Source of the DNA: Thermoplasmatota archaeon
GTDB lineage: Archaea > Thermoplasmatota > SW-10-69-26 > JACQPN01 > JAJPHT01
Direction of reading: 5' to 3'
Assembly (NCBI GenBank): GCA_035526585.1
Contig: DATLCC010000087.1
Span: 80 to 64,079 of the forward strand
Length of the DNA stretch: 64,000 bases
The notes under the pieces are model-generated. The model was given only the letters and a program-made list of their open reading frames with translations, ran no database searches and was not told the origin of the DNA. This document shows positions 30,140-55,029 of this stretch, piece after piece (the stretch's first letter is position 1; every line of letters begins with the position of its first letter). A program made the position numbers and the translations under genes.

Positions 30140-30631
30140 TCAGCGCCAGAAGGAGTAGCGCTCGAGGAGCCTTCCGAGCGCATCGCGCTGGTCAGCCGTG
30201 ATGATCTTCCCTTCCGTCTCCTTCTCGTCGAGGAAGACCTGGGCGTCCTCGGTGCTCTGGCGCGCGCCGCGCGCGAAGAGGCCTTCGAGGAAGGCGCGGA
30301 CGTCCTTGTCGTCCATGCCGCCTTCGCGCATGCCGAGCGCTTCCTTCGCGTCGTACATGAAGTGGCCCTTGCGGCCCTGCGCCATCATGCGCTTCCTTGC
30401 GCCGGGCACGGGCACGCGCGCGGGGCGGTCCGCGTTGCTCGCGAAGCCCGACGAGCGGTTGCCCTGGAAACCGGTGCTGCCACCGGTGGGGCGGACGAAG
30501 CAGTCACGGCAGAAGACCGGGCGCCCGGGTGTCGGGGCGAAGGGGACGGAGGCGGCCTTGCCGCACTTCGTGCAGGTGATCTCGGTGCGGGTCTGGGGGG
30601 CGGGCGAATAGTGGGAGATGGGAGCGGACAT
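30140..30631 (-). CDS. Zinc-ribbon protein with a CxxC-x17-CxxC domain; C-terminal domain unknown
   Basis: 163 aa. TCTKCGKAASVPFAPTPGRPVFCRDCF has exactly 17 residues between the two CxxC pairs. A Gly/Ser/Arg-rich linker and an unknown helical C-terminus follow. Confidence 0.6.
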   Translation of the reverse strand: MSAPISHYSPAPQTRTEITCTKCGKAASVPFAPTPGRPVFCRDCFVRPTGGSTGFQGNRSSGFASNADRPARVPVPGARKRMMAQGRKGHFMYDAKEALGMREGGMDDKDVRAFLEGLFARGARQSTEDAQVFLDEKETEGKIITADQRDALGRLLERYSFWR

Positions 30632-30962
30632 GGGTATCAGGTGATGGGTCGTGGTGTTCGAGCGTAGGCGAGGAAAGGAGCGCGAGGCACGCGGGCGGTG
30701 GGGGACCGCTGCGGGCGTGGCGCTCGTCGGGCCGCCGAGGCAGCCCGGGACCCATCACGCACAGACGTCGAGGGGGGCGCGCGGGCCGTTGCAGGAAAAT
30801 GCGTCGTTCAGTGCGTCACCCAACCTATGCGACTTTTTGCGTCGGCTTCGGGTATAAGCGCGCCGATGCGAGTCGCATGGCCCAGCTCAAGAATGACCAC
30901 ATGTGGGCAATAGCGGCCAGTTTCCAACAATGCCGCGTGCCTGCCGGCGCGGCATTCCTGTC

Positions 30963-31242
30963 AGGCCGAAATGTCTCTGATGATCAAGTTCGGGATGCCT
31001 GACAAGCGAGGATGTGGGTGACGGAGGTTGCCCCTGCTCATGCCACGACACGGGGGGTCTCTTTGTTGCGCCCCCAGCGGACTTCCCTCCGGGCGTCACG
31101 CAGCGCGCGCGACATCACCGCCTTCACCGATGCGGGCCGCATCGAAGGCTCCGTTGTTCGCTTGGCGAGCCGGATCTCCCCGTCACTCCCCTCCTCGCTT
31201 CGTGGGGGACGCGAAACTTTTCATCAGAAAAATGTCGCCCCC
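30963..31242. mobile_element. ORF-less MITE-like unit of about 280 bp, bounded by an inverted pair of the 62-bp palindrome-tipped repeat
   Basis: The left copy is 30963-31024 (+): CCGAAATGTCTCTGATGATCAAGTTCGG + ..GCGAGGATGTGGGTGACGG. The right copy is 31177-31242 (-): reverse complement GCGACATTTTTCTGATGAAAAGTTTCGC + GTCCCCCACGAAGCGAGGAGGGGAGTGACGG. The palindromes face outward and the tails face inward. Confidence 0.45.
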
Positions 31243-31370
31243 GGCGACCTTGTCTCTGCTTAGGCCGTGCGCCATCGCGGTCGATGCGCGCGAGCGCCTC
31301 CGCTCGTCGCGTCGGAAGTAGAAGAAAAGGAGCGGGCCGCGAAGCGGCCCCGCCCACGGAAAGTTCGCCC

Positions 31371-32636
31371 TCAGGCCGACTTTCCGGTCGCGATGATCTT
31401 CATCGTGCCGTCGTCCTGGACCTGCCAGTACGAGTAGATGCCCGTGGTGGGCTCGCGCTTCGCGGGATCGAAGGCGAAGGCGTGGGCGTAGCCGTCGAAG
31501 TCGATGTCGTCGCCCTTCTTCACGGCCTCGGCCGCGTCCTTGAACCGGTCGGCCGTGTACTTCGTGCCCGGCGCGTTCAGGATGTCGGGGAGCTTCGCGG
31601 CGATGTCCTTGCCTTCGACGCTCTTCGCGGCGAGCGCGGCAAGGGCGAGGTACATGACGCCGTCGTAGCTCTCGGCGGCATAGAGCGCGGGCGTATGGCC
31701 GTAGCTCGCGTTGAAGACCGCGTTGAAGCGCGAGAGGTTCGCCGTCTCGGGGTTCGTGCCCTTGACGCCGGCGGCGAGGAACTTGTCGTCCGGGCCCTTG
31801 CCGGCCTTCGTGGCGAGCTGCTCGTTGTACACGCCTTCGGAGCCGTACACCTTCGTGCCCGCGAGGCAGCCCTGCGTCTGCATGGCCTTGAGGGCCGCGG
31901 CGCCGTCGTCGACGTACGCGACGAGGACGATCGCGTCGGGCTTGGGGGCCGCGCACACGGTCGTGACCTGGCTCGACATGTCGCCGGCCGCGTTCTCTTC
32001 GTACTTGGCCTCGTGGCCGGGGACGACCGCGACGGGCGGGACGCTCGTCGTGAGCGCCTGCTTCATGACGGCCGTGAGGCCGTTGCCGTACGCGTTGTTG
32101 ACGATGATGATGCCGACGGTCTTCACGCCGTCGTCCGCGATGAGCTTCGCGAGGACCTTGCCCTGGACGGCGTCCGAGGGCGAGATGCGCAGGAAGTAGC
32201 CGCCGTTGTCCTTCTCCGTGAGCGTGGGGCTCGTGGCGGAGGGGGAGGCGACGACGATCTGCTCCTGCTTCGCGAGGTCGAGGACCGCCGCCGTGACGCC
32301 GGAGCAGCAGGGGCCGACGATGCCGGTGACGCCGGCCGAGGCGAGCTGGTTGAACGTCCCCGTGATGGCGGCGCTGTCGGTCGTCTTGTCGTCCTTGTAG
32401 GTCGCGGTGATCTTGATGCCGACGTTGGCGTCGTTCACCTGCTCGACGGCGAGCTTCGCGCCGTTCTCCATGTCGGGGCCCAGCGAGTTGAGGGCACCGG
32501 TGAGCGGCATCATCGAGCCGAGCTTGAATTCCAGCGTCTTGTCGTTGCCAGTGTTGGTGCCGTTCTGCGCGCAGCCGGCCAGCATCGGGGCAGCAAGGAG
32601 CGAGACGGCGGCGAGAAGGAGCATCTTGTGCGTCAT
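31371..32636 (-). CDS. ABC-transporter substrate-binding lipoprotein, branched-chain amino acid (LivJ / Peripla_BP_6) type
   Basis: The internal ATG 32636 gives MTHKMLLLAAVSLLAAPMLAGC (lipobox LAGC). A type I periplasmic-binding fold follows. No permease or ATPase genes are adjacent. Confidence 0.85.
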   Translation of the reverse strand: MTHKMLLLAAVSLLAAPMLAGCAQNGTNTGNDKTLEFKLGSMMPLTGALNSLGPDMENGAKLAVEQVNDANVGIKITATYKDDKTTDSAAITGTFNQLASAGVTGIVGPCCSGVTAAVLDLAKQEQIVVASPSATSPTLTEKDNGGYFLRISPSDAVQGKVLAKLIADDGVKTVGIIIVNNAYGNGLTAVMKQALTTSVPPVAVVPGHEAKYEENAAGDMSSQVTTVCAAPKPDAIVLVAYVDDGAAALKAMQTQGCLAGTKVYGSEGVYNEQLATKAGKGPDDKFLAAGVKGTNPETANLSRFNAVFNASYGHTPALYAAESYDGVMYLALAALAAKSVEGKDIAAKLPDILNAPGTKYTADRFKDAAEAVKKGDDIDFDGYAHAFAFDPAKREPTTGIYSYWQVQDDGTMKIIATGKSA

Positions 32637-32706
32637 GGTCGTGGCTTCCCCCATTCGGAAGGTGATGCGAGACCCGGGATACGATGGATAAACCTTGCCT
32701 CTTTTG

Positions 32707-33591
32707 TTATCTCGCTCGCCACAGGAGCCGAGCTCCCTCGATATAGGCCTCGACGCGCCCCGCGCGCTCCAGCGCCGCGAGATAGCCGCGCACCGTCGCC
32801 GCCTGGAGCGCGTACAGCTCCACCGTGAGCTGCGCGGGCGGGAAACGGTCGAGGAGAGCCACGAGCACGTCCTCCGCGCTCGCCGGCGCCCGCCCCAGGA
32901 ACGCGAGCGCGGCCTCCTCCGCCGCGTGCATCGCGTCCGCGTTCGCGCGCACGGCGGCGTCCACGTCGCCGACCACGCCGCCGTGATAGCTGACGATCGT
33001 CCTGTCCGCAAGCGTCCGCAGCCGCTCGGTGCTCGCGCGGGCTGCCACCGGATCCACCGCGAACACGAGCCCGTACTTCGAGAGCGTCGCCTCCGGCAGC
33101 AGGGCGTCGCCCACGAAGATCGTGCCGTCGACCTCGATCCCCATCTGCCCGACGCTGTGGCCGCCGAGGGCATGCGCGCGGATCCGGAAGCCGGCGACGT
33201 CCTGCTCCCCCTCGTGCAGCTGCTGCCCCACGGTGGAGGGCTGCGCCTGCAGGAACTTGCCCTGCAGGGCCTTGGGCGCGCCTGCGCCAAAGAGCGTGTA
33301 CGGCTCGAGGTCGGGGTGCTCGACGAAATAGTGCTCGTAATGCGGCGCCGCGATCAGGCACCCCGTCCGCTTCGCGACCCATGCGTTCCCGCCTATGTGG
33401 TCGGCGTGCGCGTGGGTGTTCACGACCGCGGCCACGGACACGCCCTCGTTCTGCAGGGAGTTCGTCACCTTCCGGACGAGATTCTCGTCGAGGCCGCTGT
33501 CCACGAGCAGCGCACTTGCTCCATGCGTGACGACGCCAATGCCCGTCCCTGCCTTGGCCACGCGTACCGAGGGCGATATCTGCTCGAACAT
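32707..33591 (-). CDS. MBL-fold metallo-hydrolase with a C-terminal winged-helix-like extension
   Basis: The metal motif is NTHAHADHIGG, and downstream His/Asp ligands are present. I take the start at MFEQISPSV (ATG 33591); the track start is 33627. Confidence 0.8.
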   Translation of the reverse strand: MFEQISPSVRVAKAGTGIGVVTHGASALLVDSGLDENLVRKVTNSLQNEGVSVAAVVNTHAHADHIGGNAWVAKRTGCLIAAPHYEHYFVEHPDLEPYTLFGAGAPKALQGKFLQAQPSTVGQQLHEGEQDVAGFRIRAHALGGHSVGQMGIEVDGTIFVGDALLPEATLSKYGLVFAVDPVAARASTERLRTLADRTIVSYHGGVVGDVDAAVRANADAMHAAEEAALAFLGRAPASAEDVLVALLDRFPPAQLTVELYALQAATVRGYLAALERAGRVEAYIEGARLLWRAR

Positions 33592-51473: not shown

Positions 51474-51536
51474 AGTGCCAGTGTCGCTGCGCTTCCTCTT
51501 GGCGCTTTCTGCGACGCTCCGAGCACATCCTTGCCT

Positions 51537-52104
51537 GGGCCGAAATTTTTCTGCGGAAAAATTTCGGGTCCCCCATTCGGCAAGGACGGGAGTGGCGGTG
51601 TAGCCTGATCTCGGCAAAGCCTACCATCGGCTTCCACTTGTCACCGAGGACTGCCACCCCCTGCTTCCCACAAGATCGGACTATCGTTGTCGACGGGCGC
51701 CGGATCGGACGATGAAAGACTAATGATAGCATCGCGCATCATACTACACAGGGATCGCACATGCCGGTCAACGTGAAAGTCATTGCTGCGAGCGCAATTG
51801 CCATCTTGGCCCTACTTTTGGGATGGGCGGCCGTGATGGCTATCAAAGAGTGGATCACGACGAACCCCACATACGCCCTGGCGACGCTAGTGGTCGTCGG
51901 AGGCGTTGTTGTTACCGTTGCCGGTCCACGGCGCGGAGGCCGGTTCACGCCGCTCATCGGAGCGGGTATGATCATTGCGGACGTGGTGCTCTTCTATTTC
52001 GCCTAAGCCTGCACCATGAGGGGCCGGCGTCAAGAGCAAGATAGCACCTCACACCCATCCCCGCCAGCCGTCGTGCGAAATTTTCCGCAGAAGAATTTCG
52101 CTCC
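51537..52104. mobile_element. MITE-like 568-bp cassette bounded by an inverted pair of the 62-bp palindrome-tipped repeat
   Basis: The left end is 51537-51598 (+), with core CCGAAATTTTTCTGCGGAAAAATTTCGG at 51540-51567. The right end is 52047-52104 (-), with core at 52075-52101. The interior is visibly lower in GC and carries a single atypical ORF. Confidence 0.5.
51761..52006 (+). CDS. Small hydrophobic protein (2-3 TM) encoded inside the cassette
   Basis: 81 aa: MPVNVKVIAASAIAILALLLGWAAVMAI..LATLVVVGGVVVTVAG..LIGAGMIIADVVLFYFA. Its codon usage (att, gct, cta, ctt, gtt, ggt, tat, and a TAA stop) is unlike the neighbouring genes. Confidence 0.45.
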   Translation: MPVNVKVIAASAIAILALLLGWAAVMAIKEWITTNPTYALATLVVVGGVVVTVAGPRRGGRFTPLIGAGMIIADVVLFYFA

Positions 52105-54206: not shown

Positions 54207-54812
54207 GTGGGCCGCCTCCTGCTCGCCATCCTCCTTCTCGCGCCGGCGGCAGCGGCCGCCCCGGTCGCGATCGAACCCACGGGCGACGCGGAAGCCGACG
54301 CCGTCGCCGTGAGCGGCACGAAAGACGCGCACAGCAGCTGCAGCGCCTTCGGCACGATCCCCTGCGCTGCCGTGAGCGGCACGGGGAACGCAAGCGGCTC
54401 CTCGCGCGTGGAGGGAGCGCATCTCCTCGTCTGCCCGACGAACGGCTTCGGCACGCCGCACTGCCTCGTGAACGGCGACGACGACCAGGAGGTCGCGAGC
54501 GCGAGCCTCGAGGGCCACGCGGAAGGAGGCGCGGCAAGCCTCGCCCCCACGGGCCGCGCCAACGGCTCCCTCGTCGCCGTCGGACGCGATGGCGCCCGCG
54601 GGAGCCTCCTCGCCGTCGGAGGCGACGCCGATGGGACGATCGCGGTGTCGACGGGCCAGGCGCATGGGATCGTCGCCGTCGGGGCGGGCGAGGCGAGGGG
54701 GTTCATCGCCGCCTCGGCGGCCGGGGACGCGGAAGCCGAGGGGTGCCTGGCGACGCCTCTTGACCCATGCCATGAGGGCGTGGCTGTGGATCTCGAGCCC
54801 GAGCAACGATGA
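54207..54812 (+). CDS. Small secreted Gly/Ala-rich repeat protein with three Cys-x7/9-Cys loops
   Basis: 201 aa with a GTG start. The signal peptide is [18 protein letters not shown]. It has repeats of the type G-x-[AD]-x-G-x-[LIV]-[LIV]-A-V ([30 protein letters not shown]). The frame is opposite the shadow of uvrB. Confidence 0.5.
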
Positions 54813-54815
54813 CCA

Positions 54816-54878
54816 GGGCCGAAATTTTTCTGCGGAAAAATTTCGGGTCCCCGCAGCGGCAAGGATGGGGGTGACGGG
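54816..54878 (+). repeat. Solo copy of the 62-bp palindrome-tipped repeat
   Basis: Its core at 54819-54846 is identical to the one at 51540-51567. The tail is GTCCCCGCAGCGGCAAGGATGGGGGTGACGG. The core starts 6 nt after the stop of ORF 54207..54812, so it may act as that gene's oligo-T terminator. Confidence 0.85.
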
Positions 54879-54945
54879 AATGTCTCTCGCCCGCCCCGGA
54901 GCCGAGCCTTTTTCAGCGGGGACCCTTTGCCAAGGATATCCCATT

Positions 54946-55029
54946 GCCGAGGTGGCAGAGCGGCCCAATGCGCCAGTCTTGAAAACTGGTGGGCGCAAGT
55001 CCTCGCAGGTTCAAATCCTGTCCTCGGCG
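54946..55029 (+). tRNA. tRNA-Ser (anticodon UGA), class II with a long variable arm
   Basis: Hand-folded. The acceptor is GCCGAGG/CCTCGGC and the anticodon stem is CCAGT/ACTGG with loop CTTGAAA. The T arm is GCAGG-TTCAAAT-CCTGT and the discriminator is G. Confidence 0.9.

Follow-up and report, generated by a model that had tools for sequence, protein, structure and literature searches.

MITEs and mobile insertion cassettes, e.g. the Correia elements of Neisseria and the IS231-derived MICs of Bacillus, are small non-autonomous units that are bounded by inverted repeats, lie in intergenic regions and are lineage-specific; some of them contain passenger ORFs or signals of the promoter or terminator kind. 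Another kind of small repeat is represented by the REPs of bacteria. Their dimers are inverted, with the partners 20-100 bp apart and arranged tail-to-tail around variable spacers, and both homodimers and heterodimers occur; furthermore, DNA can be inserted between the partners, the elements are located downstream of genes, and their abundance is strain-specific (PMC3733652). In CGTC REPs, the tag abuts a stem of 8-9 bp, and some REP families are found without a dedicated transposase (PMC3733652). REPINs, which were defined with a spacer limit of 130 bp, were "not detected in archaea" (bioRxiv 10.1101/2021.07.10.451892). REP/REPIN replicators are described as bacterial and as tied to RAYTs, the HUH-Y1 transposases (Pfam PF01797) that mobilise REP doublets and are encoded by a single-copy gene, usually with REPs on its flanks; the family presented here is an archaeal counterpart by its population structure.

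The stretch of DNA that was analysed (64,000 nucleotides, referred to as the window) lies on contig C87 of a metagenome-assembled genome (G000; 2.66 Mb, 70% GC, 86.5% complete, 130 contigs). The host is an archaeon, as is evident from the presence of an archaeal SRP RNA and two TBP repeats. A 740-bp gap between two genes of the window contains a pair of inverted modules, designated here as the window doublet. We regard it, with a probability of roughly 0.6, as an old and partly decayed copy of a non-coding, REP/REPIN-like doublet family that is private to this genome. The features of the window that belong to this family or surround the doublet are the following (window coordinates).

30140..30631, minus strand: gene for a treble-clef zinc-finger protein of 163 aa (gene call; Pfam PF23477, E 1.8e-13)
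30852..30859, minus strand: likely TATA box of the zinc-finger gene, reading TTATACCC on the minus strand (prediction)
30948..31036, plus strand: left arm of the window doublet, alpha-type, with outer arm, core palindrome, ATGC linker and G-rich tail
30966-30993, plus strand: core of the plus copy, CCGAAATGTCTCTGATGATCAAGTTCGG
30967..30992, plus strand: left core palindrome, CGAAATGTCTCTGATGATCAAGTTCG, with 7 positions unlike the family consensus CGAAATTTTTCTGCGGAAAAATTTCG
31005..31024, plus strand: left G-rich tail, AGCGAGGATGTGGGTGACGG, with 3 mismatches to the right tail
31037..31167, no strand: spacer, unique, 131 nt, 70% GC, with a short local hairpin CGATGCGGGCCGCATCG
31168..31257, minus strand: right arm of the window doublet, beta-type, with TCCCCC linker (covariance model R1)
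31180..31199, minus strand: right G-rich tail, AGCGAGGAGGGGAGTGACGG, an exact match
31211-31238, minus strand: core of the minus copy
31212..31237, minus strand: right core palindrome, reading CGACATTTTTCTGATGAAAAGTTTCG on the minus strand
31371..33290, minus strand: gene for a periplasmic-binding-type protein of 639 aa (Pfam PF13458, E 5e-36)
51521..51610, plus strand: left arm of another doublet (covariance model R1, 93.9 bits)
52045..52104, minus strand: degenerate right arm of this other doublet (nhmmer, 35.7 bits, E 1.3e-8)
54799..54889, plus strand: solo module upstream of tRNA-Ser (covariance model R1, 85.8 bits)

The sequence-only reading of this region had described an inverted pair of one and the same repeat, and both arms are indeed significant members of the family. 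In a search with a covariance model (R1) built from 52 genomic copies, the right arm scores 73.4 bits (E 8e-14; C87:31247-31336, corresponding to 31168-31257 of the window). The left arm, the more decayed one of the pair, scores 50.1 bits (E 2.8e-8; C87:31027-31115, corresponding to 30948-31036) and 46.8 bits with nhmmer. The left copy is therefore far above chance, which answers the doubt that had been raised about it. The core and tail strings quoted for both copies are present at the positions listed above, and the 20-nt tail pattern, with ≤3 mismatches allowed, matches the window at exactly these two sites (0.01 on average in shuffles). As had been noted, the palindromes face outward, with the tails directed inward. 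The unit had been given a length of ~280 bp; it is real, but with full arms it extends over 310 nt (30948-31257). The fold of the doublet has an energy of -72.9 kcal/mol (z=-3.8). Both arms score under the family median, which suggests an older copy; the window doublet is an ordinary, decaying member of its family. Its spacer has no similarity to the spacer of any other doublet and finds only weak GC-rich matches of 31-46 nt elsewhere in the genome, and no target duplication is visible at this locus.

The family was delineated by a genome-wide palindrome search of the whole assembly, in which every match was aligned. The module is ~90 nt long and consists of an outer arm (..CCGGAGACATCGTTGYC-WGGG), the palindrome, a 12-nt linker and a tail of the form GGCAAGGATGGGGGTGACGGGG(A/T)TGYCT. 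The core is a perfect AT-rich palindrome of 26-28 nt, S-CGAAATTTTTC-TGCG-GAAAAATTTCG-S', and it is this core rather than the outer termini that is best conserved; the outer arm is conserved weakly. The core palindrome is kept by compensatory changes: its closing pair (alignment columns 21/48) is C-G in 31 copies, G-C in 17 and A-U in 3, and is unpaired in one, and 96% of the cells of the core helix are paired (74% for the outer helix). The genome contains ~80 modules (nhmmer and covariance model R1), which range in decay from 99 down to 27 bits (R1) and all lie outside reliable gene calls. Besides the window doublet, two loci of the window belong here, i.e., the doublet at 51.5 kb, with an 81-aa ORF inside its spacer, and the solo module. 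The earlier description of the loops was accurate, as CTGATGA is present in both arms of the window doublet and CTGCGGA in the 51.5-kb pair and in the solo copy. In the family as a whole, ~80% of the members carry CTGCGG and not CTGATG.

Genome-wide, 32 doublets are convergent (a plus-strand module followed by a minus-strand one, tails inward, with gaps of 17-480 nt), and divergent pairs are absent; solo modules number ~22, and five are cut by contig ends. An all-against-all comparison of 22 spacers showed them to be unrelated, save for one tandem duplicate and one 17-nt motif (GTAACC..GGTTAC) that is common to two spacers. Elsewhere in the genome, matches to the spacers are limited to short shared motifs and GC-rich sequence of low complexity. 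As convergent pairs are the genome-wide rule and spacers are unrelated, the window pair is a typical doublet. Several spacers hold symmetric palindromes. Small ORFs are carried in two doublets; such ORFs of two doublets other than the window doublet matched no Pfam or PHROG family.

Two types of arms can be distinguished. The alpha arm has an ATGC linker, a G-C or A-T closing pair and, in many cases, a CTGATG loop together with a GCGAGGATGTGGG tail; the beta arm has a TCCCC linker, a C-G closing pair and a CTGCGG loop. The two types are combined in 16 of the 18 well-kept doublets (p=0.0017 for random re-pairing). The window pair has an alpha arm on the left and a beta arm on the right, the latter happening to carry a CTGATG loop. 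The loop shared by its arms had been taken as a sign that the ends co-vary within a pair, which is not borne out by the family. Partner arms are no more alike (identity 0.676) than non-partners (0.675; permutation p=0.24, 19 doublets), and the alpha and beta arms differ systematically. In mutual similarity, the arms of the window doublet rank only 31st and 54th of 58, and CTGATG is found in both arms in just two of the seven doublets that have it at all. The distances among alpha arms are weakly correlated with those among their beta partners (Mantel r=0.34, p=0.025), and this could reflect either copying of doublets as units or merely shared age. In the single-strand fold, the arms pair with each other to form one long hairpin, with 48-72 of the 90 left-arm bases paired to the right arm. 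No association was found between the arm type (alpha or beta) and the 5' or 3' end of the adjacent gene.

The distribution of the family is restricted to a single species-level genome. Neither a pattern search with ≤2 mismatches in 40 relatives (4 congeners among them) nor the covariance model in 30 relatives (4 of the same genus and 26 more distant ones) gave any match. Among the GTDB species representatives, only single chance matches were obtained, in AT-rich genomes. Two scans of JGI metagenomes yielded none, and an exact-protein look-up of a neighbouring gene returned nothing that would point to metagenome relatives. A viral origin was rejected, as the palindrome is absent from IMG/VR and the 12 matches of the tail pattern turned out to be collagen-like GKDGRDG repeats in phage genes.

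Evidence for insertion comes from a doublet of 246 nt (spacer included) on another contig (C18:23954-24199), which has a small zinc-ribbon gene on one side and a glyoxalase-like gene on the other and lies downstream of aIF5B. Both flanking genes are kept in the closest relative (G004; aIF5B 89% identical), and the doublet is missing there. The conserved blocks at this locus are 366 nt apart in the host genome versus 90 nt in G004. In view of these distances and of the length of the doublet, the doublet and its spacer look like one inserted unit. The interpretation as an insertion is therefore reasonable in so far as the closest relative lacks a whole doublet at one locus; a convincingly duplicated target, a shared interior and a transposase, on the other hand, were not found. 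At this empty site, no target duplication is visible. Direct repeats of 8-9 nt flank 2 of 19 pairs, with uneven offsets and in slight excess over shuffled partners (p about 0.01), and the other 17 pairs have none. A second empty site, at the FtsY locus, was ruled out, its downstream neighbour not being conserved, and no empty site is available for the window locus because synteny is not conserved there in any relative. This single empty-site comparison, together with the distribution of the family, points to mobility: the doublet is real and was probably inserted, and it is not a demonstrated transposon.

As for the enzyme responsible, a search for Y1/RAYT (PF01797) found none in the host assembly, with the positive controls matched, and none in eight other genomes of the taxonomic family of the host. 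Y1/RAYT is likely absent from G000, an assembly that is 86.5% complete. No TnpB in the genome exceeded the threshold; the sole match to a TnpB domain (18.5 bits, cut-off 26.3) is interrupted by a stop codon and belongs to contig C65, which yielded no module. A derivation from IS200/IS605, as PATE or omega-RNA, was rejected in the absence of both Y1 and TnpB: these elements share their palindromic end with TnpA(Y1) or TnpB, and no such gene was found here. Nor was any transposase detected between or beside the pairs or in the module-rich regions examined. Widely spaced modules (on C94, C53, C49, C1 and C27) enclose ordinary host genes only and no autonomous element, and a search for an associated enzyme in the module-rich regions of C18 and C130 led to housekeeping genes only. 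Note that contigs break at modules; as the assembly is incomplete and broken at these very sites, a mobilising gene could be missing from it. If the family is truly mobile, some enzyme other than Y1 would move hairpin doublets in archaea.

The family shares many properties with REPs and REPINs. In both cases, short extragenic palindromes occur in tens to hundreds of copies (here ~80), mostly as inverted doublets with conserved arms and variable spacers; heterodimers of two arm types are formed; the elements are often located just downstream of genes; clear target duplications are lacking; the abundance is strain- or species-specific; and the whole doublet folds as one long hairpin. There are also differences. 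The host is an archaeon, and neither its genome nor the eight others of the taxonomic family encode a RAYT or Y1 transposase. No GTAG or CGTC tag adjoins the stem, the only conserved CGTC (the complement of GACG in the tail) being ~30 nt away from the palindrome. The arms are ~90 nt long (20-40 nt in REPs), the AT-rich core stands out from a genome of 70% GC, and the spacers reach 480 nt, sometimes with an ORF, which is past the 130-bp limit of REPINs. Finally, REPIN-RAYT persists vertically across a clade, whereas the present family is found in one species-level genome only. The result is an archaeon with a population structure like that of REP/REPIN (inverted arms, variable spacers, heterodimers, placement at gene ends), in whose taxonomic family no Y1 transposase was found.

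According to our preferred reading, the family would have spread recently within the lineage as a selfish REP/REPIN-like hairpin element; whole doublets would be inserted, leaving the target unduplicated, and would later decay, the window doublet being one example. The differences from REPs listed above speak against this reading, and it does not account for the way in which alpha and beta arms stay together around unrelated spacers. One could imagine a RAYT-independent archaeal replicator in which an alpha and a beta hairpin arm are mobilised jointly and acquire or swap unrelated DNA between the two tails, in the manner of a miniature cassette carrier. With a BRE/TATA-like box and an oligo-T stop on both strands of each arm, every copy would then be an insulated unit, transcribed convergently to give complementary RNAs from unique sequence. 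Such a scenario appears doubtful at best; if true, this replicator would represent a novel type of mobile element that provides archaea with new small RNAs and promoters.

A more conventional possibility is that the modules are long terminal inverted repeats of a DDE-type IS, as in a classical MITE or mobile insertion cassette, with the autonomous copy missing from the assembly and the varied interiors being cargo or deletion remnants. The inverted pairs with inward tails and distinct left and right ends (alpha and beta) would fit, as would the inverted arms of ~90 nt and ~68% identity, the small ORFs of two doublets as cargo, the flanking direct repeats at 2 of the 19 pairs, and the state of the assembly (86.5% complete, contigs breaking at modules). 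However, copies of a MITE would be expected to share an interior and a uniform length, and here the interiors have nothing in common even near their ends and vary from 17 to 480 nt. Furthermore, conservation peaks in the central palindrome of the arm instead of the outer termini, the targets are not clearly duplicated (neither at the empty-site locus nor in 17 of the 19 pairs), no parent IS could be identified, and the pairs examined have no transposase gene between them or next to them. We consider this origin quite unlikely. The same arrangement of short unique segments flanked by inverted repeats at many loci would also be compatible with an invertible DNA switch, in which a site-specific recombinase acting at the modules flips the spacer. 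Many of the spacers, however, are only 17-100 nt long and have no orientation-dependent feature, several contain symmetric palindromes, and the two arms of a pair share only ~68% identity and differ systematically, which makes a switch very improbable. A ribozyme or some other gene for a structured non-coding RNA has hardly better prospects. The CUGAUGA loop and GAAA are reminiscent of a hammerhead core or of C/D boxes, both arms of the window doublet carry CTGATGA, and the fold is more stable than expected (z=-3.8). Nevertheless, neither the unit nor its spacer nor the whole gap matches any Rfam family, at the gathering score or even at E≤5, and the great majority of the members have CTGCGG in place of CTGATG. 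Both observations led us to reject a hammerhead or C/D box; in addition, the unit is not conserved in any relative and its spacer is unique. An origin-recognition box (dyad plus G-string) was judged improbable as well, in view of the copy number and of the spacing of the G-string.

The remaining alternative concerns transcription. The tRNA genes of the host have GAAAnn+TTTWWnAG+GGG boxes 32-39 nt upstream, and TTTT(T)C often comes after the gene. In the palindrome, each half has the sequence CGAAA+TTTTTCTG, similar to the boxes of tRNA-Ser (TTTTTCAG) and tRNA-Thr (TTTTTCCG), and thus resembles the BRE/TATA boxes of the host. With a promoter PWM made from 33 tRNA upstream regions of the host genome, the forward half reaches 8.4, a value within the top 0.04% of positions in the genome, and the reverse half 4.3, and the predicted start is the first base of the conserved tail. 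The promoter region of tRNA-Ser can be aligned to a module in which half the palindrome is deleted. Archaeal RNA polymerase terminates at oligo-T tracts, and TTTTTC, the tract found after many tRNA genes of the host, is present in every core on both strands. The modules make up 0.24% of the assembly but contribute 102 of its 403 T or A runs with a length of at least five. The palindrome side faces the 3' end of a gene in 34 cases and the 5' end in 22 (crude gene calls), and the palindrome is often situated 5-50 nt past a stop codon.

These signals could mean that the module is useful to the host as punctuation: it would terminate or insulate transcription in both directions by means of its oligo-T tracts, act as a weak BRE/TATA promoter, or do both. 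In that case, each doublet would form an insulated mini-unit whose spacer is transcribed from convergent promoters into sense and antisense small RNAs with complementary ends, and the window doublet would be either one of these units or a defunct copy. The tracts on both strands, the 25% share of T5/A5 runs, the position of many modules just past stop codons with the palindrome toward the gene, the likeness to the tRNA-Ser and tRNA-Thr boxes, the rank of the forward score with its predicted start, and the alignment of the tRNA-Ser promoter region are all in favour of a punctuating role. Nevertheless, most real tRNA promoters score higher (10-18) than the forward half with its 8.4, and the value of the reverse half is lower still; 22 of the 56 modules face gene 5' ends, and the context is inconsistent with gene starts. 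Copies decay freely, the window copy included. Since none of the relatives has the family, it does not underlie any conserved function of the host. Host-useful punctuation is thus unlikely in our opinion, and the same applies to the mini-unit with its paired small RNAs. Returning to the selfish REP/REPIN-like element, oligo-T on both strands suggests that a doublet probably stops transcription arriving from either side, and it may weakly start transcription as well, both of which would be a side effect and not the purpose of the window copy. In this way, AT-rich promoter-like and terminator-like signals are injected into a 70% GC genome, and the family may reshape the boundaries of transcription units because it supplies a quarter of the T5 tracts. 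Starts of proteins were also considered. The tail is SD-like (GGGGGTGA) with ATG/TTG/GTG 5 nt on, and an outward ATG at the outer arm could begin a leaderless gene; both possibilities were rejected, as the ORFs in question are short or compositional junk and mutually unrelated.

Concerning the gap itself, the sequence-only reading had seen no credible ORF in it, and a GC3-based gene caller likewise finds no gene between 30631 and 31371. The gene order around the gap is kept in none of the relatives G001-G004, in agreement with the expectation that the region is not conserved in synteny; there is hence no evidence for a conserved RNA gene in the gap. In G004, the zinc-finger gene has another neighbour upstream. 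Apart from a short TATAAGCG box that precedes the zinc-finger gene, no sequence of the gap was seen to be shared with relatives; this motif is also present upstream of the G004 zinc-finger homologue and resembles the tRNA promoter boxes of the host genome. The 5' end of the zinc-finger gene faces the left arm at a distance of ~320 nt, and 30632-30860 probably holds the leader and promoter of this gene. If the candidate TATA box is right, part of the length of the gap is accounted for by this promoter and 5' leader. The 740-bp gap can be annotated as a repeat doublet plus the probable leader/promoter region of a neighbour, with no hidden gene or RNA family. On the other side, the palindrome of the right arm faces the 3' end of the binding-protein gene, whose stop codon is ~113 nt away from the arm, and these final ~113 nt of the gap represent the 3' flank of that gene.

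Doublets, i.e. pairs of convergent ~90-nt modules with their tails facing inward around a spacer, are unevenly spread over the genome of the host archaeon. Contig C18 carries six well-matched doublets in 27 kb as well as one decayed pair, and this density indicates regional clustering; three doublets lie within 3.5 kb (C18:21517-25037) around the genes for aIF5B, a small zinc-ribbon protein and a glyoxalase-like protein. Furthermore, at C1:4171-4595 one arm is tandemly duplicated together with its spacer (169-bp period) ahead of a single opposing arm, which shows that local duplication can enlarge doublets. In the whole 2.66-Mb assembly, 102 of the 403 runs of at least five T or A fall inside modules, although modules account for no more than 0.24% of the bases.

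Like the 51.5-kb doublet of the window, the doublet at C130:23187-23777 has a long spacer (~420 nt). This spacer encodes an 86-aa Cys-rich ORF resembling the 81-aa membrane ORF of the 51.5-kb doublet; no Pfam or PHROG family matches either of the two ORFs. A 16-bp palindrome, GTAACC-N4-GGTTAC, is repeated within several doublet spacers and elsewhere in the genome, and is also found near solo (unpaired) modules. It may be the operator of a regulator or a second small repeat.

Doublet spacers containing the GTAACC-N4-GGTTAC palindrome
C130:18724-18923
C18:8303-8505
C35:11156-11328
C35:14281-14584
C49:25627-25896

Several contigs have a module in their first 30-270 nt (ends of C1, C27, C47, C98, C124 and C126); the repeat is therefore one cause of assembly breaks, and the sequence lost in the gaps may include partner arms, or else an autonomous element.

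The promoter region directly upstream of the tRNA-Ser gene (window 54895-54937; gene at 54946) can be aligned with the consensus of the modules if 10 nt, the second half of the palindrome, are taken as deleted; an equally high score was reached by 3 of 500 shuffles. The TTTTTCAG box at -37 to -30 occupies the expected TATA position. The promoter could be derived from a module, or else could be the module's ancestral source.

A TATAAGCG box is present 5' of the zinc-finger gene both in the host archaeon and in its closest relative, G004:
window 30852-30859, TATAAGCG box of the host archaeon
locus L085 (G004:C20), about 560-575, TATAAGCG box of G004
The box and the zinc-finger gene are separated by a 98-aa Cys-rich ORF in G004; the host archaeon lacks such an ORF and has only a ~190-nt leader there.
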